Positions 2,030 through 58,244 of a DNA stretch of 64,000 bases are shown piece by piece. Within the stretch, counting starts at the first letter, position 1; each line of letters starts with the position of its first letter. Position numbers and translations under genes: made by a program. The stretch covers positions 24,395-88,394 of the forward strand of contig JAHFHC010000002.1 of assembly GCA_023247085.1 (NCBI GenBank). Reading direction: 5' to 3'. The notes under the pieces were generated by a model. That model did no database searches. It was not told where the DNA came from and was given only the letters and a program-made list of their open reading frames with translations. This DNA is from Candidatus Micrarchaeota archaeon. Its GTDB lineage: Archaea > Micrarchaeota > Micrarchaeia > Norongarragalinales > UBA8480.

Positions 2030-2050
2030 AGGAGTTGCTAAACATTCATT

Positions 2051-3565
2051 ATGCTAGGAACAATAATTTCAAATGAAGAAACGCCCTCTACAAAGGAGTT
2101 TTGCTTTGTGCTTGGACCAGAACGCGTTGTGTCAATTGGCCAGCTAATTAAAGTGCGCTTGTCCCATTCGGCACAATCGGAAAACAACAAAGCTGGTGAA
2201 ATAGTAGCGATTGTAAAGCGAATCACGCGCCAAAACAGGTACTATGAATTTGCCGAGTCAATCTCTCAATATTCAAAAGAAGCCAAGAGCTTTGAAACAA
2301 GCTTTCCAGCAAGAGACTGGGAATATACAACTATCTTTTGTACTATACTTGGCAATTATGTTGAGGGTAATTTAACTCGCTGTGGGTTTCCGCCATCTCC
2401 AGGCGACGCAGTTTTCGATGTTGAACCTGAAGTAACAAAAAAAGTACTTGGAATAACCGACAATGGACTCCTTCTAGGCCACTTGCTTGCAAGTGATTTG
2501 CAGTGCACTGTTGACATTTCGCGTTTACTGCAAAAGCATTTAGCCGTGCTAGGAATGAGCGGGTCTGGCAAAAGCCATTTGGTTAATGTGATAATTGAAG
2601 AGTTGCTTAAACGTGACCCAAATACTGGCAGACTAGCGGTAATTGTGCTTGACCCTCATGGAGACTACGCTGGGTTTTCCCACCCTGCTTCACCTTTTCG
2701 CGAATCAACAATTGTTGTAAAAGGCGATGCAATTCAAATTTCAGCAGCTCATCTATCCGCTTCACTCTTGTCTGAACTAGTCCCTTCGCTAACCGCAGCT
2801 GCAAGAAGAGAATATAGCAAATTATTTGCAAAAGTAAAAGAAGCTTGTGCAAATGAAGGAAAGCCTATTACGCTAGACGAATTGATAACTGCTAGTTATG
2901 AATCAACTAAAACAAACTTGTCAGATGTACTTGATGAAGTTAGCCAATTGAAACTATTTGGCGCATTTGACTCGCCTGGAGTTAACATAGTAAAGCCGGG
3001 CAAACTAGTTGTATTTGACTTATCTAACCTAAACAATCGCGCTAAACAAGTAGTAGCGTGGTTCTTTGGCAGAAAACTATTCAACCAACGCCGTCAAGGC
3101 AATACCCCTCCTTTTGTACTTGTAGTTGAAGAAGCACATTTATTTGCCCGCGAAAAAGCAAAAAGCGAAAACTCAATTTCTAAACCAGTAATCGAGTCAA
3201 TTGCACGCGAAGGACGCAAATTTGGAGCTTGCTTATGCCTAGTTTCACAAAGACCAGTGCAATTAAGCACAACTGCCTTATCGCAGTGCAATAGCTTCAT
3301 AGTAATGCGCGTTACTAATCCGTACGATTTACAACACATTGGCGAAAGCTGTGAAGGAATTGACAAAAATAGCTTAGATGCAATTACAACTCTTCGTCCA
3401 GGCGAAGGTATAGTTATAGGCGAAGCAACTAACTTTCCCACGTTTGTCAAAATCCGGCCAAAATCCACACTCGGCGCATCCAGCGTAAAGTTAGAGGATC
3501 TTGCCAAAGAATTTGAGTCAAAAACAGTTGAACTTAAACCAAGTGACGTGGACGCATTTCTATGA
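2051..3565 (+). CDS. herA: HerA hexameric DNA helicase/translocase
   Basis: 504 aa. Walker A (LGMSGSGKSHLV) and Walker B (VLVVEEAHLF). The size and the NurA neighbour are typical of the archaeal HerA-NurA end-resection module. Confidence 0.75.
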   Translation: MLGTIISNEETPSTKEFCFVLGPERVVSIGQLIKVRLSHSAQSENNKAGEIVAIVKRITRQNRYYEFAESISQYSKEAKSFETSFPARDWEYTTIFCTILGNYVEGNLTRCGFPPSPGDAVFDVEPEVTKKVLGITDNGLLLGHLLASDLQCTVDISRLLQKHLAVLGMSGSGKSHLVNVIIEELLKRDPNTGRLAVIVLDPHGDYAGFSHPASPFRESTIVVKGDAIQISAAHLSASLLSELVPSLTAAARREYSKLFAKVKEACANEGKPITLDELITASYESTKTNLSDVLDEVSQLKLFGAFDSPGVNIVKPGKLVVFDLSNLNNRAKQVVAWFFGRKLFNQRRQGNTPPFVLVVEEAHLFAREKAKSENSISKPVIESIAREGRKFGACLCLVSQRPVQLSTTALSQCNSFIVMRVTNPYDLQHIGESCEGIDKNSLDAITTLRPGEGIVIGEATNFPTFVKIRPKSTLGASSVKLEDLAKEFESKTVELKPSDVDAFL

Positions 3566-3927
3566 CTGAATTCAAAACCCAAAACCAGTTAAATTCACGC
3601 GAATCAAAAAAAGAAATAAGCGCACCAAACAGCAATGACTTGTCATTCGAACAATTCCAAACCCCTACAGAAGTAATCATAATTGCCTATTTACCAAGCA
3701 TTGTAAAAGAAGAAGTTAAACTAGAAGGAAACAGTGAGTCAATCACGCTGAAAATAGTCGGCCCATCTGACTCACGGCAACTAGCTAGAATGGGCTACTA
3801 CAGTCACGAAGTCACCCGCCTCTACGGATTCTCTAAAACCTTCCACTTCACAACGCCAGTTGACCAAACAAGAACAAAAGCAACGTTCAAACACAACGTA
3901 ATGGAAATAAGAATACCAAAAAAGTGA
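3562..3927 (+). CDS. Hsp20/alpha-crystallin-domain small protein
   Basis: 121 aa. The C-terminal pattern ...RLYGFSKTFHFTTPVDQTRTKATFKHNVMEIRIPKK matches the Hsp20 ACD consensus (ER.YG.F.R.F.LP..VD...A.F.NGVLEI.IPK). Its start overlaps the herA stop (ATGA). Confidence 0.45.
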   Translation: MTEFKTQNQLNSRESKKEISAPNSNDLSFEQFQTPTEVIIIAYLPSIVKEEVKLEGNSESITLKIVGPSDSRQLARMGYYSHEVTRLYGFSKTFHFTTPVDQTRTKATFKHNVMEIRIPKK

Positions 3928-3949
3928 AAACAAAAAAGAAGCAACAAAC

Positions 3950-4759
3950 TTATAATTTGGCTCTGTATCTTCCGGGGACAACGTGTTTTAGAAACGTTTG
4001 TTGTGCTTTTGCTAGTGCAGTTTGGTATTTAGTTTTTGGAATCAAGTGCACGTTGCCCTTTCGGTCAACAATTAGAAACGGGTGCGTCTCACGCGCATGC
4101 GCCACGCTGATTGTGTTTCGCCAATCTAAAAATGCAGTCTTTCCCTTTTTAATAATCCTCCCAGTTGCTTCTCGAACTGCAGGTGAACCAGCTTTATACT
4201 GGGCAGCCATAGCGCTCGCTGAAGGTAAAGTCGCTAATGCAGCTCCCAATGGCATACCTTTTTCAATTGATTTAAAAGCAAATGGACCAAATGTTCCACC
4301 TATAATCGCAGCCACTGGCATTGAAACCGCAACCTCAAATGGCAACATGCCGGTTATTCGCTTTTGCCTTGCAGCTAGTAATTCGTTTACTTTTTGCTTT
4401 ACTTCTGAATGTAAATCTTCGTGTTTTATTACTAAACGCTTTGCTTCAAGCGGCGCGCTAAGCACTAAGTTAACTGCATACATTAAATGGTCAAACGCTG
4501 CGTCACCCGAAACGCCCTTGGCAATTTCATTCGCTAGAGTTAAATGTGGCTTCATTCGCTCAGCAGTTGTTTGTTTTAACAAATCACCGAGAGCCTTTAA
4601 TTTCTTATCAGTGATTTTGCCTTCATTGCGTGCAGTGTGAAGCGCAACTTGTAAATCTTTATGAAGCCAGCCATATCGTGGCATTCCAATTGCTTTCAAA
4701 TGAGCTTCAGCAGCAGCTCTTTGCGTTTCTCGATTAACTTTCCCTTCATTTACAGTCAT
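3950..4759 (-). CDS. Hypothetical protein. Its N-terminal motif A-I-G-M-PRYGWL resembles the KK-I-PRYGFL N-domain of the paralog pair at 24342-26749.
   Basis: 269-aa ORF of uniform coding quality. Central Gly/Ala-rich hydrophobic segment (MPVAAIIGGTFGPFAF). No family recognised. Confidence 0.45.
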   Translation of the reverse strand: MTVNEGKVNRETQRAAAEAHLKAIGMPRYGWLHKDLQVALHTARNEGKITDKKLKALGDLLKQTTAERMKPHLTLANEIAKGVSGDAAFDHLMYAVNLVLSAPLEAKRLVIKHEDLHSEVKQKVNELLAARQKRITGMLPFEVAVSMPVAAIIGGTFGPFAFKSIEKGMPLGAALATLPSASAMAAQYKAGSPAVREATGRIIKKGKTAFLDWRNTISVAHARETHPFLIVDRKGNVHLIPKTKYQTALAKAQQTFLKHVVPGRYRAKL

Positions 4760-4878
4760 AAAAACAATTAACTCAACAACTCTTTTATAGCTGACGGTGC
4801 TTCGCTAAATAACAAAATAAAAAAGAAGAAGGAAAAGAAAAAATTTAAAAAAAATAAAAAATGAAGAGAAGTTTATGT

Positions 4879-5253
4879 TTAACTTGCGTGTTTTTCAGCA
4901 AGTGTGCCAACAACTGGCATTAACACTTTTTCTCCTTTGTATGCCTTGTAGCCAACGTATAATGAATATACCCACATTGCTAACCACAATAATGGAACTA
5001 CCGCTAGCCACATTAATGCGCCTAAGAATGAGAGTGCGCCAAATACTAATCCAAGCACCATAACCACTACCCAAGATAATACCCAGTATAGTACCGCTTG
5101 TAAACCGTGAAATTTAGCTGTTAAATCTTCTTTTTGAGTTAGAAACACAAACAATCCTACTATTGGAATTGGATAAGATAACGCCGAGAGCAGCGCATTG
5201 TCTGACTTTGTTGCCATTTTTTTATTACCACCTTTTGAACCTTTCTTTGCCAT
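4879..5253 (-). CDS. Small membrane protein, DUF4870-like
   Basis: 124 aa, basic N-terminus followed by 3-4 TM helices. SALSYPIPIVGLFVFL...KFHGLQAVLYW resembles the DUF4870 signature. Confidence 0.45.
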   Translation of the reverse strand: MAKKGSKGGNKKMATKSDNALLSALSYPIPIVGLFVFLTQKEDLTAKFHGLQAVLYWVLSWVVVMVLGLVFGALSFLGALMWLAVVPLLWLAMWVYSLYVGYKAYKGEKVLMPVVGTLAEKHAS

Positions 5254-5350
5254 TTATTACACCTATTTATTTACCTCTACAGAGGCTAGACAATATCACT
5301 CGTACAGCATATATAAAACCCAGACATGCTGAGGAACTATAAAATACGCC

Positions 5351-5665
5351 TTAGCTTTTTTCTGGCGGTTGCATGTTTGCGTTTAACACTTTGCGGTGTT
5401 CTTCAGAATAAATCTTTACAATTTTGAATTTGCCAATAGTTTTTTCTTCTAAGGGCAGTATCGTAAGTTCTGTAACTTGCGCTTCTCCGCGATAATCCCA
5501 AGTTCCTTTTTGATTATGCGCCAAAAATACTCGTCCAGGCGGTAAACGGTACAATCTTCGCCCATCTTTTTTAAACCAATATTCTTTGTTGATAATAAGC
5601 TCTTTTGGAAAACCTTGTTCAGTTGTAATCTGTAACGTGTCGTTTATGATTAATGGGCTGCCCAT
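5351..5665 (-). CDS. hypothetical protein
   Basis: 104-aa ORF with no recognisable motifs. Confidence 0.3.
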   Translation of the reverse strand: MGSPLIINDTLQITTEQGFPKELIINKEYWFKKDGRRLYRLPPGRVFLAHNQKGTWDYRGEAQVTELTILPLEEKTIGKFKIVKIYSEEHRKVLNANMQPPEKS

Positions 5666-5751
5666 ACAACACTTAAATAGTTTTAGATTTTTAAAGCGTT
5701 TCTTTTTCGCTGTATGCTTGACGTGTTCTTAGGTTTTAACGCAGTGCAAGC

Positions 5752-6447
5752 TTAGCTAGTTCGTTTTATTGTGATTTCGTCTTGTGGCGTTTCTAGTTTT
5801 AGATTTTCTATTATTTTTTCAGCCACTATTGACGGTTGCATGTATTTGTCGAAATCAGTTGGTATCTCTTCGTCGAAGAAATTAGTATGCATTCCGCCTG
5901 GAAAAACCGCTATTACTTTTATGTTGAATGGGGCGGTTTCTTGTCTGATGGACTGTGTAAAGCCCACAAGTGCAAATTTACTAGCAGAGTACGCCGCAAG
6001 GTTTGCTCTTCCAGTAAGGGCGGCGGTTGACAATATATTTATCACAGCACCACTTTTTTGCTTTTTCATATGTTTTAGTGCCGTTCGTGTACCGTTCATA
6101 GTTCCAAAGACATTAGTTTCAAACATGTCTCTTACTCGGCTCATGTCGTTTTCTTCTATTACTCGGTGAGGTATGCGGACGCCTGCGTTGTTGATCCAGA
6201 TATCGACTACTCCGAATTTTTTAACTGCTAAATCGCCGAGTGCTTCAACGTCTTTTTTATTTGCTACATTCGTTTTAAGCGCAACTGCGCCAGTAGCTTC
6301 GGCTATTTGTTTTAGTCCGGATTCATTTCTTGAACCAATAACGAGTTTGGCTCCTTCTTTGGCAAATAGTTTTGAAAGCTCAGCTCCCAGTCCTTTACTT
6401 GCGCCAGTAATTACAACTACTTTTCCATTAAGTTCCATTTGGATCAA
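5752..6447 (-). CDS. Short-chain dehydrogenase/reductase (SDR) family oxidoreductase
   Basis: 231 aa. N-terminal TGASKGLG Rossmann motif, NNAG, and the catalytic YSASK (YxxxK) motif. Confidence 0.85.
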   Translation of the reverse strand: MIQMELNGKVVVITGASKGLGAELSKLFAKEGAKLVIGSRNESGLKQIAEATGAVALKTNVANKKDVEALGDLAVKKFGVVDIWINNAGVRIPHRVIEENDMSRVRDMFETNVFGTMNGTRTALKHMKKQKSGAVINILSTAALTGRANLAAYSASKFALVGFTQSIRQETAPFNIKVIAVFPGGMHTNFFDEEIPTDFDKYMQPSIVAEKIIENLKLETPQDEITIKRTS

Positions 6448-6477
6448 TTTGCTTTAGTGTTTTCTTTTGTGGCTAAC

Positions 6478-6707
6478 GGGGCTACGGGGATTTTCACGAA
6501 ACCCTTTTCTTTTTCGCGAAAAAGAAAAGTCTTTCAACCCCAAAGAAAAAGGCGTTTGCCTCTTCTTTTGGGAGTGAAGGACCTTTTCTTTCGAAGAAAA
6601 GGGCTTTCATTTGAACCCCGATCCTTAGCTGTCTACACTCATCTTGCAGTCGTGTGACCGCGGATGTTCCGCAAGCTAATGTTCTATCCAGGTTATACTA
6701 TAGCCCC
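6478..6707. repeat. Palindromic structured element, copy 1 (terminal inverted repeat GGGGCTA...TAGCCCC; internal CTTTTCTTT/AAAGAAAAG hairpins)
   Basis: Several perfect or near-perfect hairpins, e.g. cttttctttttcgcgaaaaagaaaag and ccttttctttcgaagaaaagg. The termini are reverse complements of each other. Homologous in inverted orientation to 58036-58244 (shared gaaacccttttcttt...aaagaaaag.ctttca). Confidence 0.5.
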
Positions 6708-6884
6708 AAGAAGATTCTTGTTAGTTTTACGTTGTTTTTAGTGTGCTGGCCGCGTGGCGCGTTATTTATTGTGATTGGAAATGTATAAAAGCTTCTTTTG
6801 TCCCTACTTCTCTGCTTTTATCTAGTGCTTTATGAGTGCTTTTTATAAAAGCAATTGATAAATTAGAGGTTTGAAAATTAATTT

Positions 6885-7040
6885 ATGACTATTTGCATGA
6901 CTTGTGGACGCGAAACAGACAAATACGCGGTTTTAAACTGCCCAAATAAAGAATGCCAAGCTAAAATTATTCGCTGTGCTCCTTGCAGGGCTAATGAAAA
7001 TAAGTACGTTTGTGCATCTTGTGCCTTTTCAGGTCCATGA
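6885..7040 (+). CDS. Small zinc-ribbon protein (51 aa, four CxxC-type pairs)
   Basis: Translation MTICMTCGRETDKYAVLNCPNKECQAKIIRCAPCRANENKYVCASCAFSGP. TATA-like TTTATAAAA at about 6843-6851 and GAGGT upstream. The stop overlaps the ribL start (ATGA). Below the ORF-track size cutoff. Confidence 0.45.
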   Translation: MTICMTCGRETDKYAVLNCPNKECQAKIIRCAPCRANENKYVCASCAFSGP

Positions 7041-7465
7041 GCGAACCAAGACTCGTAATGGTATTTGGCACATTTGATTTCCTACACTTGGGGCACGTTT
7101 ATACTTTTCAACAAGCTAAAGCGCTAGGCGACAAGCTCGTTGTAGTGATAAGTCGGGATTCCAGCGTTGAGAAAATAAAAGGCAAATCTCCTTTTTTCTC
7201 TCAAATGGAACGCAAGCAACTAGTTGAATCACTAAAAACAGTAGACGAAGCAGTAATCGGTGATGAAGCGGATTTTTTTGTGCCAGTGCGCGCCTATAAG
7301 CCAGATGTAATTGCGCTTGGCTACGACCAACAAGTAATGTCCGAAACCGACATCCGGCAAAAACTCAATGCAATCGGCCTAACAAAAACCGAAATCGTCA
7401 GGCTAAAGCCATTTCAACACGATAAACACAAGAGTTCAAGTTTAAAAAAATTCTACGGAGTTTGA
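7037..7465 (+). CDS. ribL: FAD synthetase / FMN adenylyltransferase (archaeal RibL, cytidylyltransferase family)
   Basis: MVFGTFDFLHLGHVYTFQQAKALGDKLVVVISRD carries the (H/T)xGH nucleotidyltransferase motif. About 143 aa, typical of archaeal RibL. Start reassigned to the ATG at 7037, inside the longer ORF-track call. Confidence 0.7.
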   Translation: MSEPRLVMVFGTFDFLHLGHVYTFQQAKALGDKLVVVISRDSSVEKIKGKSPFFSQMERKQLVESLKTVDEAVIGDEADFFVPVRAYKPDVIALGYDQQVMSETDIRQKLNAIGLTKTEIVRLKPFQHDKHKSSSLKKFYGV

Positions 7466-7719
7466 TAACTAAAATGGGAAAAGTACTAACTTTATTGAGA
7501 GTCTCAAGCGAAGAAGGCCAAAATTTAAACGAGTTACTTGAAAAACTAAAACAAGTAAGTGGCTATAACACTGGCAAAATCGAAGACTACGTTTTTGGTT
7601 CCAAAATAATCAAAATCTCCTACGTGTGCGAAGATAAAGACGCCGTTGACTTCGAATCAGTTGTAAGCCAAGTACCCGGTGTAGGCGAAGTAAACGTAGA
7701 AGAAGTTGGGCTAATCTGA
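7462..7719 (+). CDS. Translation elongation factor aEF-1 beta
   Basis: About 85 aa. The pattern MGKVLTLLRV...KIISYVCEDKDAVDFESVV...VEEVGLI fits the aEF-1beta family in length and layout. Confidence 0.65.
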   Translation: MITKMGKVLTLLRVSSEEGQNLNELLEKLKQVSGYNTGKIEDYVFGSKIIKISYVCEDKDAVDFESVVSQVPGVGEVNVEEVGLI

Positions 7720-8115
7720 AGATTGCGAGAAGTCTATCTTTTTGAGATTTGGGACGCGGTCAAACGCGTTGTCTGTGCTTATTATTGCGTCGAACTTTTT
7801 AGCATGAATTGCGTGAATTGCATCGGTCGGCGAAAGTGAATACGCTTCTGCTAAAGACACTGCCTCGATTAATGTTTCAGGTTCAAGCGAAATTACTTCA
7901 TCTACTATTTCTTCTACATATCTTACTGCTTCCAGCGTCTTTTCTTTTAAGTTATTGCGATTGAGATAATGCCAGATCTCCAATAACGTTGCAGTTGAGG
8001 TAAAGAACTCGTGTTTACCTGTATTATCTTTGAGGAACTTCTGCGCGCTCAGCTTTAAGTGATCCTTATCTTTGAATCCAGCTAGGAAAATATCAGTGTC
8101 CAAATAAAATTTCAT
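7711..8115 (-). CDS. vapC: PIN-domain toxin (VapC-like)
   Basis: 134 aa. MKFYLDTDIF acidic PIN motif, with further conserved Asp residues (SPTDAIH, TDNAF). Overlaps the upstream AbrB-like gene by 4 nt. Confidence 0.65.
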   Translation of the reverse strand: MKFYLDTDIFLAGFKDKDHLKLSAQKFLKDNTGKHEFFTSTATLLEIWHYLNRNNLKEKTLEAVRYVEEIVDEVISLEPETLIEAVSLAEAYSLSPTDAIHAIHAKKFDAIISTDNAFDRVPNLKKIDFSQSSD

Positions 8116-8372
8116 ATATTGTCCACAAATTCTTTTCTAGCTTCTTCTTTCATTTGGCGCAGTGTCTTCTTATCTGATCCAGGAACGACTATTGAAAATA
8201 AGCCCTTTATCGGGTCTACATTCCTATGCACCGGTTTAAGCGTTATTTTGTTACCCTGTGCCTCTATTAGCACTTCTGTATTCGCCCCGATTCCCACTTC
8301 GTCCCTAACTTTTCTTTCTAGTTGCAGTCTTCCCTTTTCATCAATATTCCCAAAAACGTACATTAATCCCAC
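8112..8372 (-). CDS. vapB: AbrB/SpoVT-family antitoxin (VapB-like)
   Basis: 86 aa. EKGRLQLERKVRDEVGI is a swapped-hairpin AbrB-type DNA-binding motif. Translationally coupled to the PIN gene. Confidence 0.6.
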   Translation of the reverse strand: MGLMYVFGNIDEKGRLQLERKVRDEVGIGANTEVLIEAQGNKITLKPVHRNVDPIKGLFSIVVPGSDKKTLRQMKEEARKEFVDNI

Positions 8373-8527
8373 CTTTCAGTTATTTTCCCACTTTTTATTA
8401 GAAATCCCACTATTTAAAAGCTTTCCCGCTGGCGGAAGGTTGTGGTGCTTTTTCGCTTGGTTTAAGCCCCAAGTATATGCCCCGAGCTTCGCAACCTTTA
8501 AGCGGTTTTCTTCTCCTTATTTTTTAA

Positions 8528-11152
8528 ATGATTACTCGCTTGCGGTTGGTGAACTGGAAGAGCCACGAAAACACCGAGCTCCGCTTTTCCCCTGGAACTA
8601 ACTTGCTAATCGGCTCAATGGGTTCAGGCAAAACGAGTTGTCTTGACGCCATTTGCTTTGCTTTTTTTGGATCCTTTCCCTCCCTCAAAAGCAGACAAGT
8701 TTCCTTACTAGAAGTAGTAATGTCCAGGCCAACCAAAAAGCCAAACGCATTAGTTGAAGTTGAATTCACTGCAAACAACAAAACGTACTTAGTTACGCGT
8801 CTAGTTAATCCAAAAGGAACAGAAGCGTTTCTACGCTGTGAAGGGGCATTAATGGAAGGGCCACAGCCAATTCGAACAACTGAAGCTGTTTCTCGCATTT
8901 TGAAAGTAGACTATGATGTGTTTACTCGTGTGATTTACGGCGAACAAAATAAACTAGACTATTTTTTAACTTTGCAAAGAGGCCAACGCAAAATACAAAT
9001 AGATGAATTACTTGGTATTTCATTGTTTGAAACCGTGCGTCAAAATTGCACTTCGATGATTTCAAAACTAAAAGTTGAAAAAACTAGTTTAGAAAACTTT
9101 CTCAACAGCGTAAACGCACCAGCACTTGAAACTGAAATAACCACATTGCGTTCATCGCTTTCAATTGCAATTAACAACAAAAACGAGCTAGAGAAAAACC
9201 TATTCCTGCTAACAAATGAATTTGAACTAGTTAAAAAGAACCTCGAGTCACTAGAAGAATTGAAAAAAATAAACGAAGAACTCAAAACCCAGCTTGTAAC
9301 TGCTAATGCAGAGGCAAATTCACTTCACACTAGCGCCGTTTCAGTTATGCCTGCTTCACTTGCCTCACTTACACGTGAACAATGCACTTCGCTTCTAGAG
9401 CAATGCGCCCGTGCTTTACAAGAGCGGTTTGACTTAGAACGCCAAATTACTGAATTATCTTCTTCTGCCCAACGTTTTGAAGGCGAAGCCAAAGCCCTGC
9501 TAAACGTAATCGAACAGTTTCCACCAGAAAAACTAAAAGCAGAAATAACTGATTTGTCACGCATATCTGCAGAGTTTCAACTAGCATTACAAGAGTTCAT
9601 TGAACTAGGCAAAAAAGAAAGCGCGATATCCGTACAGTTGAAAAACTTTGAATCTGAAATCAAACAAATTGAAATCAGTTTGCTAAAGTCACGCCAGCTT
9701 TTATTACCCGTTGAAGAAATTAAAAAGAGCTTCGCTTCACTTGAACAACTTGAAGAAAAAATAAGCCAATGCCGTCAAGGGGTTACCCAGTTTGAACGCT
9801 TAGTTGCAACAAAACTAGAAGTTGCAGCTACACTAGAAAAGTCGCTTTTCTTACTTCAACGCGAATACGCTTCTTGCCCAACTTGCGACCAATCAATTAC
9901 AAGCGAAAAAAAAGAGTCGCTAATTCACCAAAAGACAAACGCACTGCAAAATGAAAAAGCAGAATACGCAATTGCAGTTGAAAAATTAGGGTTATTCCAA
10001 CGCGAGTCAAATAAGTTTGATTCAATGCGCGCAAAGTGGGTTGAATCCATTCCAATTGAAGCTAAAATAGCAGAATTACAAGCACGAAGCAATGCGGTTC
10101 AAACCGACTTAACAAATTCACACCAAGAGCTTGAAGCCCTTCGTGCGCTTTCTGCTGTAAGCAAAGCGCGTGTTGATGCATTGCGCATAAAAGCAGATAA
10201 GCTCGAGTCAACCAAACAAAATTTAACTCAGTCTGAAAAAAGTTTAGAAAAACTTGAAGGCGTTAGAAAAGAAATAGCGATTTTTGGAAATGAAATGGCG
10301 AAAAAGCAACTTGCTCTTAGCTCATTTGAAGATAAACGAAAACTAGAGTTAAAGCTTGAAGAAACTCGATCGGCATTAAAAGCATTTGAATTATTTGAAA
10401 AAACCGAATTACTTCATAAAAAGTCAAAAGAATTATCCGCTAAATTGTCTAATTTACAGTTTCAAGAAGGTGAACTCATCACGCTACGCGCTACACATTC
10501 TAGCTTGTTTTCAAAACTCGAATCAATCCGCACGTCACTTGGCCACATTTCAACTGAAGTGAAAGAAAAAACTGAGTTAGTTGCAAAATTAGACGCACAA
10601 TACAGCAAATTAGTGCAAATAAAAAAGAACTGCAGCGAATTAGACAATGGCATACACAATTCTACAATTTTTCAAAATAGTTTATTGGAGACACAAGCTG
10701 AATTACGCGGTGAGCTTATAAGCGCCGTTAATGAAGCAATGCACGAAGTGTGGCAAAACGTCTACCCGTATAAAGATTATTCGTCGTGTAGAGTGTTACC
10801 AACTGAAGATGATTATGCACTTGAAGTGCTTTCTATGGACGGCTGGAAGCCAATTGAACAATGCAGTGGAGGAGAAAAAACTTGTGCTGCTCTTTCATTG
10901 CGTGTTTCACTTGCTATGATACTTGTGCCTAACTTATCGTGGCTAGTTTTAGATGAGCCAACACATAACCTAGACGCGCAAGGCGTTAATTTACTAGCAA
11001 GGGCTTTGCATGATTCTCTACCAACAATAGTAAGACAAACATTTGTAGTAACCCACGACGAAGCACTAAAAGAAGGCGCAAGCGGCGCAGTACACTTCTT
11101 CAACAGAAACAAAGACTTAGGAGAAGCAACGTTGGTTGAAACACTAGCTTAA
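8528..11152 (+). CDS. rad50: Rad50 ATPase (SMC-like DNA double-strand-break repair)
   Basis: 874 aa. N-terminal Walker A (GSMGSGKTS), long coiled coil with a central zinc-hook CPTC, and C-terminal signature/Walker B (LVLDEPTHNLD). Confidence 0.8.
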   Translation: MITRLRLVNWKSHENTELRFSPGTNLLIGSMGSGKTSCLDAICFAFFGSFPSLKSRQVSLLEVVMSRPTKKPNALVEVEFTANNKTYLVTRLVNPKGTEAFLRCEGALMEGPQPIRTTEAVSRILKVDYDVFTRVIYGEQNKLDYFLTLQRGQRKIQIDELLGISLFETVRQNCTSMISKLKVEKTSLENFLNSVNAPALETEITTLRSSLSIAINNKNELEKNLFLLTNEFELVKKNLESLEELKKINEELKTQLVTANAEANSLHTSAVSVMPASLASLTREQCTSLLEQCARALQERFDLERQITELSSSAQRFEGEAKALLNVIEQFPPEKLKAEITDLSRISAEFQLALQEFIELGKKESAISVQLKNFESEIKQIEISLLKSRQLLLPVEEIKKSFASLEQLEEKISQCRQGVTQFERLVATKLEVAATLEKSLFLLQREYASCPTCDQSITSEKKESLIHQKTNALQNEKAEYAIAVEKLGLFQRESNKFDSMRAKWVESIPIEAKIAELQARSNAVQTDLTNSHQELEALRALSAVSKARVDALRIKADKLESTKQNLTQSEKSLEKLEGVRKEIAIFGNEMAKKQLALSSFEDKRKLELKLEETRSALKAFELFEKTELLHKKSKELSAKLSNLQFQEGELITLRATHSSLFSKLESIRTSLGHISTEVKEKTELVAKLDAQYSKLVQIKKNCSELDNGIHNSTIFQNSLLETQAELRGELISAVNEAMHEVWQNVYPYKDYSSCRVLPTEDDYALEVLSMDGWKPIEQCSGGEKTCAALSLRVSLAMILVPNLSWLVLDEPTHNLDAQGVNLLARALHDSLPTIVRQTFVVTHDEALKEGASGAVHFFNRNKDLGEATLVETLA

Positions 11153-14831: not shown

Positions 14832-16241
14832 TTAAATCCACTCTTCTTTTACCAACAAGTATTTAGCCAGTACATTGAGATTGGTTTTACTTACTTTTTT
14901 CACAAGCGATACCTTAGCGCTTTTAGCAGGTACGATAAAATGCGAAGCAATGCCCGTTTTTTCCATTCTCAATAGCTGCTCAGTTATTTTGATAAGTTCA
15001 ATTTCATGTTGTTCAACGTCTATGCACACTTTTTCTCCGTTTAAGTATGGCCCTCGGCTTATTTTTTTACCTTTCAAAAAGCCCACAACGTTTTCGCTAT
15101 GCCAAGCTGGTGGCCCAACGAGTTGCTTTACTTTCGGTAGCTCACTTGACGTAACTTCAAATAACAATTGCCCAGTTGAATAAGAGTCACAGCTTCCAAA
15201 TAAGTGAAAGCCACTTGCTTCTAGTTGCTTGAAAATGTTTTTTTCAGTTCGCTTAAACTGGGGGAATAAAATGTCGTCAACTACATCTGGTTTTTTTAGT
15301 TCAATTAACAAAAACGTTGTGCCGCGTTTAGAGATTATTTTATTCAATATCTTCGCTTTACTTTGACTTGCTAATTGGCTTTTTTCTTTAAAGAAAGCTT
15401 CGCTTGGTTTTTTTACAAACGCTTTTGCTAACAAAATGAACTTTGCTAAACTCTGTGAAGAAATTGCAGCTGCCGCGTTTCTATTGCGGTCAATCACATC
15501 GATTAGTATAATTGACGCATCTTTGAAGCGGTGTAGTAGTTCAACTTTGCCTTGCTTTGTTTCAGAATTCCACGTGCCTTCGTAATCAACTATTATTGGA
15601 GGTAGCCAAATTGCTGCTTCGCGTAGTAAGTTCTCTAAGTCGCCGTACTTTAGCATTAGTTGCTCGCACACTAGGCCAGAGAAGCCGCCGATTTCCACTT
15701 CTGCGCCGTAAATTTGGTTTGTTTTTAAGAGTTTTTTCAAAACCCTGACATCGCGACGCTGGCGTTGCGTTAATTTTTTTTGTAAATAATCCATGTGCAA
15801 TGGCGAGCGGTCAACTGCGCTTTTAATTCCAGTGTTAGGTTCAACTTTAAAGCAGGGGATTACTTCAATTTGGAAACCTGCAACGTTTGATTGAAGGTAA
15901 GGGTGTTCAGCATAGTGCGTTTCCCATTTTGTTTTTACTGCTTTTTTTGCTGCATCAAACGTTTTCTTAACAATAACTTCTTCATTCATCTCGCGAGGAA
16001 ATGCCGCAAACAAGTCGATATCTCGATCCCCGCGTAAACCAGTGTCACGCGCTGCGCTGCCTACAAAAGTAACTTCGACTGTTTTTGGCAAGAATTTTTC
16101 TAAATTCGAAATGACTTCGGCTGCGAATTTCTTCTCTTCTTTTAGCTCCGCTGGAGAAGGTGAAACCTCACCAGCTATTTTAGCAAATACGCGCTCCATT
16201 TCCATATAACTAGAAATACTCTGTGGTTGAATAAAAACCAA
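14832..16241 (-). CDS. cca: CCA-adding tRNA nucleotidyltransferase (archaeal class I)
   Basis: 469 aa. Class I polymerase-beta-type motif GSAARDTGLRGDRDIDLF near the N-terminus. Confidence 0.8.
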   Translation of the reverse strand: MVFIQPQSISSYMEMERVFAKIAGEVSPSPAELKEEKKFAAEVISNLEKFLPKTVEVTFVGSAARDTGLRGDRDIDLFAAFPREMNEEVIVKKTFDAAKKAVKTKWETHYAEHPYLQSNVAGFQIEVIPCFKVEPNTGIKSAVDRSPLHMDYLQKKLTQRQRRDVRVLKKLLKTNQIYGAEVEIGGFSGLVCEQLMLKYGDLENLLREAAIWLPPIIVDYEGTWNSETKQGKVELLHRFKDASIILIDVIDRNRNAAAAISSQSLAKFILLAKAFVKKPSEAFFKEKSQLASQSKAKILNKIISKRGTTFLLIELKKPDVVDDILFPQFKRTEKNIFKQLEASGFHLFGSCDSYSTGQLLFEVTSSELPKVKQLVGPPAWHSENVVGFLKGKKISRGPYLNGEKVCIDVEQHEIELIKITEQLLRMEKTGIASHFIVPAKSAKVSLVKKVSKTNLNVLAKYLLVKEEWI

Positions 16242-18803: not shown

Positions 18804-18846
18804 ATTGTATATAGCTTTATCAATTTCCTTGTTTAATATTCTTAAC

Positions 18847-19743
18847 ATGATTCGAATAATTGCACTTGGAACAAGCGGGAGCATGCCAACTCCAAAATCT
18901 CCCCCTAGTTGCTTTGCGGTGAAATGGGGCGGCGTTTACTTATTTGACTGCTGCGAAGGCGGGCAACGTCAAATGATGAAGTACAACGTAAGTTTCGCTG
19001 GAATTGACGCCATCTTTCTATCTCACTTACATGCCGATCATTTTGTTGGCATATTTGGCTTATTACACTCAATGAATTTCACTGGCCGTACAAATGCACT
19101 GAAGTTATTCGGACCACGTGGCACAAAAAAACTCTTTTCCTCTATTTTTGCATTGAAAGAATTCACAATGCGATTTCCAATTGAAATACTTGAAGTTGAA
19201 GCATCCAAAAAACCTTTTTTCCAAACTGATTTATTTTCCGTCAAAGCGTTCGACGTAAAGCACAACGCTCCACATTCTCTTGGCTATGTTTTACAAGGGC
19301 TACCTTATCGCCGGTTTGACATGGAAAAATGTAAAAAAGTTGGCGTGCAAGGAAAGGATTTTTCGATATTGCAAGAAAAAGGTGAAGTTATGGCGAACGG
19401 CAAAAAAGTCAAGTATGCAGATGTAACTTACGTACAAGATGGGAAAAAAATCGTTTACACCGGCGACACTGCGCCGTGTAGTTCAATTGCAACAAATGCC
19501 AAAAATGCAGATTTACTTATACACGATGCATGCTTCTTAGAAAAACATAAGGCACACGCCAAACAAAAACTACACTCGACGTGTCTAGATGCTGGGAAAA
19601 ATGCGAAAAAAGCCAAAGTGAAAAAATTACTACTCACGCACTTTTCAAACCGTTACGATGACCAAACCGAATTACTTAAAGAATCCAAAACCGTTTTCGA
19701 AAACAGCGAATTAGCCCAACCCGGATTAGAGATTATGATTTAA
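18847..19743 (+). CDS. rnz: Ribonuclease Z (tRNA 3'-processing endonuclease), MBL fold
   Basis: [16 protein letters not shown] (HxHxDH) metallo-beta-lactamase motif; N-terminus [11 protein letters not shown] typical of RNase Z. Start placed at the internal Met of the listed ORF. Confidence 0.7.
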
Positions 19744-37471: not shown

Positions 37472-37506
37472 TTGTAAACCCTACACCTTTTTATTAACGA
37501 AAAAGC

Positions 37507-37659
37507 GGGCTCGGTGGGATTCGAACCCACGACCCTCTGGTTTCTTCCCTCTAGAGAATAGAGTTAAAAGCCAGATGCTCTAGCCATTTCAGGAACAAAG
37601 AAAAACACGGTTGCGATAATCGCTATCATGCTTCTTTATTCTAGCTGAGCTACAAGCCC
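37507..37659 (-). tRNA. tRNA-Lys (anticodon UUU) with two introns (D-loop and anticodon-loop)
   Basis: Reverse complement reads GGGCTTG-TA-GCTCAGC[approx 57 nt insert]TGGCTAGAGC-A-TCTGG-CTTTTA[approx 23 nt insert]A-CCAGA-GGGTC-GTGGG-TTCGAAT-CCCAC-CGAGCCC. The 7-bp acceptor has one G-U pair, the T-loop is GTTCGAAT-like, and the anticodon loop CTTTTAA gives UUU. CCA is not encoded. Confidence 0.6.
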
Positions 37660-39939: not shown

Positions 39940-40476
39940 ATGGCCGTACTTGAAGCGCTGCTTTTTTACTTTTTACTCATAGTTGCCACGCTGTTAATTG
40001 CCAAGAGAAAAACTTGGATTCAAACACTAAATTACTTAGGGCTACAAACAAAGAAACCGAACGTAATGCAAATAATGCGCAATGCGGCGATTCTAGTATT
40101 CATCATATTCATCAGCCTTACCGTTCTTTCAATTATATTATCGCTTGTGATTGTGGATGACTCGCAAAAAGTGTCTGCTATAATTTCAACTCTTTCTTTG
40201 CCAGCGATTTTAGTTGCAGTAACAATCGGTCCATTTGCAGAAGAATTATTCTTCAGGGGATGGTTACAAAAAAATATTGGCGTAGTTCTCTCAGCACTTA
40301 TTTTTGCAGGCCTTCACTTTTCATTTGGTTCAATTGCAGAAATATTTGGTGCACTTGTAGCCGGTTTAGTAATTGGCTATTGGGTAAAATACCGGGATTC
40401 AAACCTCTGGCCAGCTATAATAGCCCACGCGGTTTACAATGCAATTAGCATTTTGCTAGTACTGGTGATAAAATGA
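39940..40476 (+). CDS. CPBP-family intramembrane metalloprotease (CAAX protease/Abi-like)
   Basis: 178 aa, multi-TM. Motif 1 EELFFRGW, motif 2 FxxxH (GLHFSFGS), motif 3 HAVYNA. Confidence 0.7.
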   Translation: MAVLEALLFYFLLIVATLLIAKRKTWIQTLNYLGLQTKKPNVMQIMRNAAILVFIIFISLTVLSIILSLVIVDDSQKVSAIISTLSLPAILVAVTIGPFAEELFFRGWLQKNIGVVLSALIFAGLHFSFGSIAEIFGALVAGLVIGYWVKYRDSNLWPAIIAHAVYNAISILLVLVIK

Positions 40477-41531
40477 TTGTACTAGGAATTGAAAGCACAG
40501 CGCATACCTTTTCAGTTGCAATTGTACAGAAAAGCAAGGGACTCAGCAAAACAAGCAAAGCCACAAAGCGCGCTAAAACTAAACGCCAATTGAGTTCGAT
40601 CGAGGTTCTTGCCAATGCTTCAGATAAATACGCATCTACTCTTGAAGGTTACATTCCGCGCAAATTAGCTGATCATCATGCCGAAGCATTTCCAAAACTA
40701 TTGCAACAAGCTCTATCTGATTCAAGCATTTCTTTAAGCGAAATAGATGCAATTGCGTTTTCTCAAGGAAGTGGAATTGGGCACTGTCTTCACGTTGGAT
40801 ACGTGGCTGCAAAAACACTTTCCACTATGCTAAAAATACCGCTTGTGCCAGTTAGCCACAGCATCGGCCACATTGAAATCGGGCGAGAATTCAACTGCGA
40901 AACCAATGACCCGCTCGTAGTTTACGTATCTGGAGGAAACACGCAAATTCTCGGCCTTGATAAAAAAAATTCGAAGTATCATGTATACGGTGAAACAAGT
41001 GACATTGGAATTGGCAATTTCCTCGACGTACTTGGAAGAAAATTGGAGCTAAAGCCATCAGATGCAGTTGGAGTTGTGAATGCAGCGCAACTAGCGAGTA
41101 AATATATTGAAATGCCTTACACGATTCGCGGAATGAACCTAGCTTTTTCAGGTCTCTTAACGTACATTGAAAAAAAACTTATTCCACAAATCGAAACAAA
41201 AAAATTTACAAAAGAAGAAATTGCGTTTTCAAGCCAAGAAACTGCCTTTGCAATGTTATGCGAAGCGGTTGAACGCGCCTTGTGCCACACCAACAAAAAA
41301 GAAATCCTCTTATGTGGTGGAAATGCCCGCAACGCACGCTTGCAAGAAATGCTAAAAGAAATTTGCAGAGAACACAACGTCCACTTCGCTTGCACTTCTT
41401 TTGAATACTCCGGCGACCAAGCTGCAATGATTGGCTTAACTGGAATAAAAATGCTTGAATCAAAATGCCTTCCAAAATATGAGGCTCCAGTGCAGCGTTT
41501 GCGTACTGATTTAACACACGTTTGTTGGTGA
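40473..41531 (+). CDS. kae1: tRNA N6-adenosine threonylcarbamoyltransferase Kae1 (TsaD family)
   Basis: 352 aa. MIVLGIESTAHTFSVAIV N-terminus, metal-binding HSIGHIE, GGNARNARL. ASKHA fold. Confidence 0.85.
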   Translation: MIVLGIESTAHTFSVAIVQKSKGLSKTSKATKRAKTKRQLSSIEVLANASDKYASTLEGYIPRKLADHHAEAFPKLLQQALSDSSISLSEIDAIAFSQGSGIGHCLHVGYVAAKTLSTMLKIPLVPVSHSIGHIEIGREFNCETNDPLVVYVSGGNTQILGLDKKNSKYHVYGETSDIGIGNFLDVLGRKLELKPSDAVGVVNAAQLASKYIEMPYTIRGMNLAFSGLLTYIEKKLIPQIETKKFTKEEIAFSSQETAFAMLCEAVERALCHTNKKEILLCGGNARNARLQEMLKEICREHNVHFACTSFEYSGDQAAMIGLTGIKMLESKCLPKYEAPVQRLRTDLTHVCW

Positions 41532-41675: not shown

Positions 41676-42323
41676 ATGAAAACTAAGCTCTATCAGTTTA
41701 TTTTAAAAGAACGCGAAAAAACAGCGAAAGTACTTGAAAACCTTGCCAATCTCTTGCGAAATGGCGGGGTAGCAGTTATCCCAACTGAAACCTGTTATTC
41801 ACTTGCAATAGATGCTACAAACGACGAAGCCGCACAGAAATTAAACGCCTTAGGTGTAAAACCCGGTTTAACCAATCCAATAATTGTAAGTGACTTGCGT
41901 ATGGCTAACGAATACACTTTGATAAATCCCTTAGCTGAAAAAATATCGCATTCATTTATGCCTGGTCCAGTTACATTGGTTGTTGACTTACTTCCAGAAA
42001 CTAAACTCTCCAAAAACGTGTTCACAGATGGAGCATCCTTTAGAATTTCAAGCAACGTGTTTACACGCGCACTTGCAAGTGAATTAGAAAAACCTATAAC
42101 CGTGTCTATATTGAGTGATTCGCCACCAATTTACAAATTTAAAGACCTCTACGATACGTTCAACACGAAACTAGACGCGATCGTAAGTTCAGGAGACTTG
42201 CCACAAGTAATGCCATCGACTGTAGTAGACGTCAGGTCACCTGTTCCACACCTGGTGCGCCAAGGGCCAGTTCCATTCGACGAAATAATGAACTTAGTTG
42301 CTAAAACCACTGTAGAAGCCTAA
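41676..42323 (+). CDS. L-threonylcarbamoyladenylate synthase (Sua5/YrdC domain only)
   Basis: 215 aa. GGVAVIPTETCYSLAIDATNDEAAQKLNALG is a YrdC-fold signature. Confidence 0.7.
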   Translation: MKTKLYQFILKEREKTAKVLENLANLLRNGGVAVIPTETCYSLAIDATNDEAAQKLNALGVKPGLTNPIIVSDLRMANEYTLINPLAEKISHSFMPGPVTLVVDLLPETKLSKNVFTDGASFRISSNVFTRALASELEKPITVSILSDSPPIYKFKDLYDTFNTKLDAIVSSGDLPQVMPSTVVDVRSPVPHLVRQGPVPFDEIMNLVAKTTVEA

Positions 42324-57181: not shown

Positions 57182-58036
57182 TCATTCCTTCTTTCTGTTC
57201 TCAATTAAAATTGCTAATTCTTTTTGTTCTTCACTGCTTAACTCCAATTCAATTGGCTTAATTCCACTTTTGTTGACTCTGCATGGCCAAGTTACAAAAA
57301 TCCCATGTTTTGGTTCATAGTAAGAAACTGTAAGAACTTCGCCTTGCGCTGAAAGCAACGCTTCAACAAGCGTGCATATCTCACTAGCTGTACCATAAGT
57401 CGAAGCATTGTATTCGGATAAGTATGTGCTGAAAAAATTCCGGGTGTCATTGATAATTTTATTTTTGTTACTTACTGGTTCTGAAAAAACTGGAATTCCG
57501 CGTTTGCCATGCTCACCAATGAAAGTAGCATCTATAGTTTTTGAGAAATTCTTTCTGTCATTCGAAATTAAGTACTTTAGTCGGTTAACATCAAGCTGCC
57601 CGCCAAATCCAATAAAATTTCCGCTGTCAAGTCCAGTTAAATTTTGCGCCAGGTGAACAGTTCTATCGCAAGGAGTTGTAATTATTATTATCTTGCAAGA
57701 TTTCTTTGGTTTAATTTTAGAAAAAATATCTACAATTATAGGTTTGTTTAACGTCCACAAGCTACTGCCAGAAGGTGCGCCAAATGCCCCCGCAGTTATT
57801 ACAATTATATCTGCATCATTTGCATTTTCGTATTTTCCAACTTGAATTTTATCCGCATTTTGCGGAAAACTTCCAATTAAGTCAAATTTTAGTCCTTCTG
57901 CTTTAGCTAAATTGCGATCTATTAGTGTCAATGCGTTTGTAGGTAGTTTAATTTGTAGGCAAAATGCGGTTGTACTGCCAACTCTTCCAATTCCAATAAT
58001 TGCAATTTTTGTCATTTCAGTTTTCTCTTTTTTCAT
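57182..58036 (-). CDS. mdh: Malate/L-lactate dehydrogenase family (NAD-dependent)
   Basis: IAIIGIGRVGSTTAF Rossmann motif, IVITAG, IIIITTPCD, IGEHG motifs. Confidence 0.75.
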   Translation of the reverse strand: MKKEKTEMTKIAIIGIGRVGSTTAFCLQIKLPTNALTLIDRNLAKAEGLKFDLIGSFPQNADKIQVGKYENANDADIIVITAGAFGAPSGSSLWTLNKPIIVDIFSKIKPKKSCKIIIITTPCDRTVHLAQNLTGLDSGNFIGFGGQLDVNRLKYLISNDRKNFSKTIDATFIGEHGKRGIPVFSEPVSNKNKIINDTRNFFSTYLSEYNASTYGTASEICTLVEALLSAQGEVLTVSYYEPKHGIFVTWPCRVNKSGIKPIELELSSEEQKELAILIENRKKE

Positions 58037-58244
58037 AAAAGAAAGTAGCCCCGAGCGGATTTTCGTTTCTCACAGGTTTTCTTTTCCGTGAGGCTTTTCT
58101 TTTATCAAAAGAAAAGGTTCTTCGAACCGCTGTCAATGGATTCAGAGTCCACTATCCTTGACCATTGTCTAAAATTCTTTCTTTTACACTGAAAGGCTTT
58201 TCTTTCTTTTAAGAAAGAAAAGGGTTTCCTAGACGACGGGGCTA
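58036..58244. repeat. Palindromic structured element, copy 2 (termini TAGCCCCG...CGGGGCTA; inverted orientation relative to copy 1)
   Basis: Nested hairpins ctcacagg..ccgtgag, cttttcttttatcaaaagaaaag, caatgg..ccattg, cttttctttcttttaagaaagaaaag. Shares gaaacccttttcttt...aaagaaaag.ctttca with the reverse complement of 6478-6707. Confidence 0.5.

Follow-up and report, generated by a model that had tools for sequence, protein, structure and literature searches.

In archaeal tRNA genes, bulge-helix-bulge (BHB) introns at non-canonical sites, several introns per gene, and intron sequences shared among tRNAs have already been described (PMC4090602, PMC4033280). Similar introns common to different tRNAs are known from the Thermoproteales, where the phenomenon was termed intron transposition (PMC4033280, PMC4090602). 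Disrupted tRNA genes are also frequent, and under-predicted, in DPANN archaea (PMC5829648), whose splicing endonuclease EndA is of the epsilon2 type in ARMAN-2/Micrarchaeum (PMC3239211) and of the alpha4 type with an L3 loop in Woese- and Pacearchaeota (PMC5829648). Here we describe a locus at 58046-58243 on the minus strand of a 64-kb stretch of contig JAHFHC010000002.1; this whole stretch is called the window. An earlier note had presented the locus as a palindromic structured element, one of two inverted copies. With high confidence we read it as a tRNA-Gln(CUG) gene with two introns located at BHB sites. A two-intron tRNA gene is of a known kind, and what our analysis adds is a family of related introns that occurs in several tRNA genes of related groundwater archaea.

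Structure of the tRNA-Gln locus

After in-silico removal of both BHB introns, a cloverleaf of 73 nt is left which ARAGORN calls tRNA-Gln(ctg). The BHB scan asked for a 4-bp helix, two 3-nt bulges and a cut after bulge nucleotide 2. This motif agrees with the published BHB definition, and 59/60 is among the listed non-canonical intron sites (PMC4090602). The parts of the gene are as follows, hyphens in the bulges marking the cut.

58046..58243, minus strand: tRNA-Gln(CUG) gene, 198 nt with introns; CCA not encoded; a T-rich tract (CTTTCTTTT) lies 3' of the gene
58229..58243, minus strand: exon 1, with the acceptor 5' strand, U8, the D-stem 5' strand, A14 and G15
58165..58228, minus strand: intron 1, 64 nt, in the D-loop at 15/16, from the BHB scan; BHB with central helix GTCT/AGAC, bulges AG-G and AA-T, an outer helix of 3 bp and an inner helix of 3 bp
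58191..58228: hairpin module in intron 1, in RNA sense GAAACCCTTTTCTTTCTT AA AAGAAAGAAAAGCCTTTC
58121..58164, minus strand: exon 2, with the remaining D-arm (G18 G19), the anticodon arm with CUG, the variable loop, the T-stem 5' strand and T-loop positions 54-59
58060..58120, minus strand: intron 2, 61 nt, in the T-loop at 59/60; BHB with the T-stem as outer helix, central helix TTCG/CGAA, bulges AA-G and AA-T, and no direct inner helix (relaxed form)
58094..58116: hairpin module in intron 2, CTTTTCTTTT GAT AAAAGAAAAG
58069..58092, minus strand: second hairpin of intron 2, CTCACGG AAAAGAAAA CCTGTGAG, its loop being a purine run
58046..58059, minus strand: exon 3, with U60, the T-stem 3' strand, the acceptor 3' strand and the discriminator A

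On the minus strand the element begins with AGCCCCGUCGUCUAG, which comprises the acceptor stem, U8 and the D-stem, and ends with UCCGCUCGGGGCUA, the T-stem and the acceptor 3' strand. In its middle, GGACUCUGAAUCC forms the anticodon arm with CUG and AGCGGUUCGAA the T-arm. The D-loop and stem read TGGTCAAGGAT, and AGAC is assigned by the BHB scan to the intron half of the central helix. A three-intron parse, in which AGAC served as the D-stem partner and the anticodon stem held a 13-nt insert, was overturned by the same scan. The termini and the four inverted repeats of the proposed palindromic element are indeed present (tagccccg at 58046-58053, cggggcta at 58237-58244, and the repeats between them). 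Its start at 58036 was placed 10 nt too early and coincides with the ATG of an over-long open reading frame (ORF) call. One of the repeats, caatgg/ccattg, links the end of intron 1 with the anticodon arm and corresponds to no helix of the mature tRNA-Gln.

BHB-guided removal of two introns from the real locus was carried out in 7,778 constructs, of which 37 gave a tRNA in ARAGORN; 26 of these were Gln-CTG and represent near-equivalent choices of the cuts. Not one tRNA was obtained from the 72,824 constructs derived from 30 shuffles of the locus.

Relatives of the gene were collected by a scan with its 3' end, AATCCGCTCGGGGCTA, covering one genome per species. The window's own genome is not among the matches listed, to which the comparisons in this paragraph refer and which include many archaeal tRNA-Gln genes. 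The spliced tRNA-Gln is identical at 67 of 73 positions, without gaps, to the intronless tRNA-Gln(CUG) of a metagenome-assembled genome (MAG) of Iainarchaeum. It shares 64-65 of 73 positions, again gap-free, with the intronless DPANN genes L055 and L019, and 65 of 75 with L115 (L numbers denote the compared loci). With L008, L055, L115 and L019 being intronless, the presence of introns is polymorphic, and the exons are collinear. The 15/16 intron site recurs in at least five other DPANN tRNA-Gln genes, with intron lengths from 14 to 149 nt and with Aenigmatarchaeota, Micrarchaeota and unclassified archaeal MAGs as hosts. The central helix at this site covaries with the D-stem (GTCT/AGAC, GTCT/GGAC, GTGT/GCAC).

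The 59/60 site with H3 = YGAA and the bulge AAU recurs in L002, L023 (six tRNAs), L038, L058, L067, L132, L175 and L191. In L023 (archaeon isolate Dive96_bin3.463), a match of the genome scan, a cluster of six tRNA genes, Gln, Glu and Gly among them, occupies ~2.5 kb (~5400-7840, minus strand). All six carry a 59/60 intron, the tRNA-Gln gene having a 15/16 intron of ~150 nt in addition, which suggests that T-loop introns are near-universal in this genome. The tRNA-Gln gene of the groundwater contig L002 has no 15/16 intron, but a ~20-nt intron near 26/27 and one of ~130 nt at 59/60. The same contig contains a 46-nt GCATTTG/CAAATGC-rich repeat, 78% identical between 2672-2717 and 2980-3025, which is found in the T-loop intron and in intergenic DNA ~140 nt upstream of the gene; a 25-nt inverted repeat encloses the region 2584-2806 on this upstream side.

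Other functions of the locus were considered: it might produce a structured non-coding RNA of its own or act in cis on mdh as a regulatory leader or terminator, its likeness to tRNA being incidental. In favor of this, the locus precedes mdh by 30 nt on the same strand, an arrangement kept in L002, and its fold is very stable: against dinucleotide shuffles, the minus-strand RNA reached z = -5.0 here and z = -7.1 at the tRNA-Arg locus described below. No Rfam family matches either. However, every conserved nucleotide is accounted for by the tRNA reading, the shuffle control yielded zero tRNAs, homologous intronless tRNA-Gln genes exist, and the other supposed copy has an unrelated neighbor and serves another amino acid. 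We therefore consider this explanation almost certainly wrong. The earlier note was mistaken in placing the element downstream of mdh, as it is located upstream of this gene on the same minus strand. It was right that the element is no simple terminator: the position upstream of mdh speaks against one, the tRNA gene explains the element fully, and the element does not correspond to the single G+C-rich hairpin with a following T-run expected at a gene 3' end.

The tRNA-Gln gene is accompanied by two other interrupted tRNA genes in the window.

6477..6707, minus strand: tRNA-Arg(GCG) gene, the other supposed copy ('copy 1'); ARAGORN call gcg, 74 nt, after splicing
6631..6668, minus strand: tRNA-Arg intron at the canonical site 37/38, 38 nt
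6491..6609, minus strand: tRNA-Arg intron at 59/60, 119 nt, of three hairpins, the central one lying between modules at 6498-6535 and 6575-6609
37506..37659, minus strand: tRNA-Lys(UUU) gene; ARAGORN call ttt, 75 nt, after splicing
37587..37642, minus strand: tRNA-Lys intron 1, 56 nt, in the D-loop after position 17, module-free
37542..37564, minus strand: tRNA-Lys intron at 37/38, 23 nt, module-free

The tRNA-Lys gene was located by a heuristic search of the window for T-arm/acceptor pairs. All three tRNA genes found in the window have two introns each and are encoded on the minus strand, and the spliced tRNA-Gln, tRNA-Arg and tRNA-Lys carry U8, A14, G18G19, G53-C61 and a TTCRAAT T-loop. In the unspliced 64-kb window ARAGORN reported no tRNA and so missed all three genes, and Rfam searched at the gathering threshold gave 0 matches. 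A permissive Rfam search of the window returned only noise and sub-threshold tRNA fragments of 13 bits, as expected for tRNAs broken up by long non-canonical introns. All six introns of the three genes show a 4-bp central helix (G-U allowed), 3-nt bulges and a cut after the second nucleotide. The motif is relaxed in Gln intron 2, which lacks the inner helix, and in Lys intron 1, where the outer helix has 1 bp. Constraining the three precursors to the BHB motifs costs 3.7-4.3 kcal/mol relative to their minimum free energy (MFE) folds, which is plausible for a motif recognized by a protein.

The tRNA-Gln and tRNA-Arg loci do share a genuine module, as claimed for the block common to both. They are two different genes, however, and not two copies of one element: they resemble each other only in the intron hairpin module and in generic tRNA features. 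Nor are the loci inverted relative to each other. Both lie on the minus strand, and the opposite impression is due to the near-palindromic block. The view of a mobile or independently functional element holds insofar as the locus is a functional unit and the block belongs to a family spread among loci; it does not hold for a palindromic mobile element in two inverted copies. What might be taken for the terminal inverted repeat of an element resembling a miniature inverted-repeat transposable element (MITE) or a repetitive extragenic palindromic (REP) sequence, TAGCCCCG/CGGGGCTA, is the acceptor stem formed by the termini of the tRNA-Gln gene.

A related possibility is that the three loci are tRNA pseudogenes, i.e. 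normal genes inactivated by short palindromic MITE- or REP-like insertions that are not removed, with functional copies elsewhere in the genome. At the DNA level the modules form nearly perfect palindromes, that of Gln intron 1 fits the Arg module slightly better when inverted, and the repeat of L002 is common to a T-loop intron and upstream intergenic DNA, all of which would suit such insertions. But each insertion is situated exactly where a 4-bp helix and two 3-nt bulges can form, and its excision restores a perfect tRNA. Exons stay identical at 73 of 74 positions between species while introns diverge, the intron sites are maintained across DPANN phyla, and the same architecture is common to the window's three tRNA genes and the six clustered genes of L023. 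Target-site duplications are not visible, and the intergenic DNA of the window is free of the module. These findings make inactivated genes very unlikely.

Several observations weigh against our reading. The MFE structure of Gln intron 1 favors a continuous 8-bp helix over the bulged form, and the D-stem of tRNA-Arg contains an A:A mismatch. Both BHB motifs of tRNA-Gln are relaxed and need a broad-specificity endonuclease. Neither EndA nor RtcB is present among the window ORFs of at least 150 aa (64 kb; 50 ORFs searched for EndA). Splicing of the tRNA-Gln precursor is something we infer from the sequence. The likeness between modules consists partly of low-complexity purine/pyrimidine runs, and some of the apparent homology could be convergence.

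The shared hairpin module

The module has the form GAAA-NN-CTTTTCTT...AAGAAAAG-NN-TTTC and folds into a 4-bp GAAA/UUUC helix, a 2x2 internal loop, a CUUUUCUU(U)/(A)AAGAAAAG stem and a variable loop. Hairpins of CTTTTCTT..AAGAAAAG with exact 8+8 matches were observed four times in the 64-kb window, against 0.00 expected from shuffles, and all four belong to the tRNA-Gln and tRNA-Arg loci. The tRNA-Gln gene has one module in each intron and the tRNA-Arg gene two in its T-loop intron, around the central hairpin. In a whole-window scan for inverted repeats the module hairpins ranked as the strongest true hairpins. The long block GAAANNCTTTTCT..AGAAAAGNNTTTC occurs in the window at 6498-6535 and 58191-58228 only. 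Within the window the module is confined to tRNA introns, with no intergenic copies.

A scan of metagenomes with the module pattern resulted in 110 matches, mostly unrelated perfect hairpins picked up by the construction of the pattern itself; only ~8 of the 110 are DPANN tRNA introns. On related groundwater contigs, genes for Arg, Ala, Thr, Leu and Glu tRNAs have module-bearing introns, at positions 15/16, 37/38 and 59/60. L175 is the ortholog of tRNA-Arg(GCG), with exons identical at 73 of 74 positions and introns at 74% and 82%, the hairpins being kept via paired changes. The tRNA-Ala(UGC) gene of L132 has the same three-hairpin 59/60 intron together with a 37/38 intron containing the module, and the 59/60 intron of tRNA-Thr(UGU) in L191 likewise consists of three hairpins. 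In tRNA-Leu(UAA) of L128 the module opens the 37/38 intron, whereas the 59/60 intron of tRNA-Glu in L023 is a single module. The T-loop introns of Arg, Ala and Thr align over their full length with a mean column identity of 67% and the same order of three hairpins. In RNAalifold these introns retain a long helical body in addition to the T-stem and the 4-bp central helix. As the modules are mutually complementary, a rod fold and a three-hairpin fold are both possible. The Gln 15/16 intron and the Leu 37/38 intron are 51% identical over the full length (z = 5.9), with ~85% by eye in the first ~42 nt. Intron 1 of tRNA-Lys gave no alignment signal with any of the introns compared.

Readings of the module as a kink-turn (K-turn), box C/D or H/ACA element were dropped, the defining boxes and tandem G·A pairs being absent. 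Its role is taken to be intron scaffolding, and none further is assigned.

Sharing of the module probably results from intron duplication or transposition among tRNA genes rather than from convergence. For the shared block alone, one might suppose that the modules are non-homologous and arose independently as stable intron scaffolds with a pyrimidine and a purine arm, without any transfer of introns. The stems are of low complexity and the loops differ (CGA, CGCG, GAT, AA). Hairpins of purine and pyrimidine runs also occur in unrelated DPANN introns (L025, L031, L074) and in the signal-less tRNA-Lys intron 1, and the search pattern alone pulls out many unrelated metagenome hairpins. The likeness, however, reaches beyond the runs to the GAAAG/CTTTC flanks, the TCCTTCAC linker, the TTGAAAG junction and the three-hairpin order of the Arg, Ala and Thr T-loop introns. 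In addition, the Gln 59/60 intron is 71% identical to the Ala 37/38 intron over the whole intron (z = 7.6), a score reached by no shuffle, and four exact 8+8 matches in the window stand against an expectation of 0.00. Independent origin is thus unlikely. A similarity limited to poly-purine/pyrimidine runs, which the earlier note had named as the outcome that would speak against its shared element, is nearly what was found for the whole loci; it does not apply to the module, which has GAAA..TTTC flanks and recurs in orthologous and paralogous introns.

For the spread of the introns, duplication or transposition between tRNA genes at the DNA level appears to be the most likely origin. The T-loop GUUCRAAU is near-identical in all tRNAs and would provide the 5' bulge together with one of the two central-helix strands, i.e. 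half of the BHB. Our best guess is that, owing to this near-universal sequence, an intron ending in YGAAAA can work at 59/60 of any tRNA gene. A process at the DNA level is weakly favored by the slightly better match of the Gln intron 1 module to the Arg module in inverted orientation. The intron-intergenic repeat of L002 also favors it weakly and is possible evidence of intron material moving as DNA. A speculative extension, which we regard as rather doubtful, is that the module introns form a self-propagating BHB intron family of groundwater DPANN that uses the T-loop, and less often the D-loop or anticodon loop, as a ready half-motif. The CUUUUCUU/AAGAAAAG hairpin would then be kept for a role after excision, e.g. 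in a stable circular RNA or in binding a protein, or for shielding tRNA genes from integrating elements.

The metagenome scan drew attention to further repeats. L185 contains, at 3925-4230, tandem units of ~200 nt, each with a tRNA-3'-end-like sequence (reverse complement AAATCCCATTGGGCCCACCA) adjoining a module-like hairpin, and two ordinary tRNAs are encoded nearby. These units may represent a tRNA gene that was duplicated, permuted or split. A conserved element TTTTCTTTTGGRAAGGGGG-N3-GGGGGAAAMCCTTTTCTT-loop-AAGAAAAGGKTTTCCCCC was found in 33 metagenome loci (e.g. L159 4797-4833, L130 6065-6092, L157 5501-5537) on contigs with 43-72% G+C, with several copies per large contig; no Rfam family matched it. 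Its 5' flank is a mirror repeat of the 5' arm of the hairpin, so that a triple-helix-like arrangement is conceivable. Its likeness to the intron module, with TTTCTTTTGGG preceding the hairpin, is slightly greater than the search pattern by itself would impose. Paired palindromes TGAGAAAAGCTTTTCTCA, ~17 nt apart and usually preceded by a conserved ctgattttccagatgtc tract, are present in ~25 metagenome loci with ~60% G+C (e.g. L131 9044-9088, L152, L153). They look like a duplicated operator site and are unrelated to the tRNA introns.

Maturation and genomic setting

From the tRNA-Gln gene a precursor of ~200 nt would be transcribed, in which each pair of exon-intron boundaries would form a 4-bp helix between two 3-nt bulges. 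A broad-specificity EndA would cleave after the second bulge nucleotide on each strand, and the ligase RtcB would join the exons to the 73-nt tRNA, the introns probably being circularised. The ends would then be trimmed and CCA added by the enzyme encoded at 14832-16241. This pathway follows established archaeal tRNA biology (PMC4090602, PMC5829648). The neighboring gene and the genes for tRNA maturation in the window are the following.

57182..58015, minus strand: malate/lactate dehydrogenase (mdh), starting 30 nt 3' of the tRNA-Gln end; neighborhood kept in L002
14832..16241, minus strand: CCA-adding enzyme
18805..19743, plus strand: metallo-beta-lactamase-fold protein, possibly RNase Z
40473..41531, plus strand: Kae1/TsaD
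41676..42323, plus strand: Sua5

The encoded CCA-adding enzyme fits tRNA genes in which CCA is not encoded. The start of mdh is ATG 58015 and not that of the longest ORF at 58036, since the product on record has 277 aa, against 284 aa for this ORF. Between tRNA-Gln and mdh lies a T-rich/TTTTATGA tract, which could be both the tRNA terminator and the TATA box of a leaderless mdh. The closest relatives of the mdh product are MAG proteins labelled Aenigmarchaeota or Nanoarchaeota, with 58-64% identity. The tRNA-mdh neighborhood is not shared by the loci L238, L240 and L241, which were found via mdh. L238 contains two tRNA genes, neither of them with a T-loop intron.

Besides the CCA-adding enzyme, Kae1 and Sua5, the window encodes archaeal LonB, Hel308, NurA, HerA, Rad50, CDP-archaeol synthase, an archaeal-type PheRS and ribosomal proteins. 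Judged by its sequence, the host is a DPANN archaeon, mesophilic-looking and with 40% G+C. Its source is groundwater, and the Logan run SRR14366766 contains the locus. In the region 974-11152, a NurA-HerA ... Rad50 repair cluster is broken by genes for a short-chain dehydrogenase/reductase (SDR; 5752-6447), for tRNA-Arg (6477-6707) and for a cytidylyltransferase. The ORF 8119-8601 just before Rad50 had no Pfam match and may be a diverged or truncated Mre11.

Relation to known systems

Three tRNA genes within 64 kb were invisible to ARAGORN and to Rfam at curated thresholds, and hence MAG quality metrics based on tRNA counts, as well as inferences of missing tRNAs, would be wrong for this lineage. 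This under-prediction agrees with the concern raised in PMC5829648. That one module recurs in introns at 15/16, 37/38 and 59/60, and in related organisms in no fewer than six different tRNAs, indicates that intron transposition extends beyond the Thermoproteales, and it provides a recently diverged set of introns for studying how BHB introns are gained. From the long introns with relaxed motifs in the D-loop and T-loop, an EndA of broad specificity is predicted for this lineage. In the open-access literature we found neither the modular intron family described here nor a DPANN lineage with near-universal T-loop introns.

The closest described counterparts are the multi-intron tRNA genes of the Thermoproteales (Crenarchaeota) (Sugahara 2008; Fujishima 2010; reviewed in PMC4033280, PMC4090602), which also have two BHB introns per gene at canonical and non-canonical sites including 59/60. 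As in their 'transposed' clusters, similar introns are found in different isoacceptors and positions, with conserved exons and variable introns. The Thermoproteales, however, are hyperthermophiles of the TACK group with an (alpha-beta)2 EndA, while the host here is assigned to DPANN, so that our locus resembles that case without being part of it. The introns described here are long (56-119 nt) compared with the usual median of 12-25 nt and are built from the CUUUUCUU/AAGAAAAG hairpin module. Moreover, a large fraction of the tRNA genes on related contigs apparently has an intron at the T-loop site. With the disrupted tRNA genes known from DPANN (PMC3239211, PMC5829648) our genes have in common the superphylum, non-canonical relaxed BHB introns, and the failure of standard predictors to find them, which leads to incomplete tRNA sets. 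Neither our modular intron family nor the present lineage is mentioned in the papers that our search brought up.

Other systems share single features. In the split and tri-split tRNAs of Nanoarchaeum equitans and Caldivirga maquilingensis the BHB joins tRNA pieces whose breakpoints coincide with intron sites. In contrast, the exons of the genes described here are collinear on one strand within ~200 nt, which implies splicing in cis and not in trans. The euryarchaeal tRNA-Trp intron with its box C/D guide RNA is likewise a long tRNA intron conserved in sequence, one with a function of its own after excision. In the module neither C/D nor H/ACA boxes nor a K-turn can be seen. Ectopic and multiple tRNA introns in the D-arm and T-arm with BHB-like junctions have also been reported from Cyanidioschyzon merolae and nucleomorphs (PMC3728597); those hosts, however, are eukaryotic, and their introns are short and unrelated.

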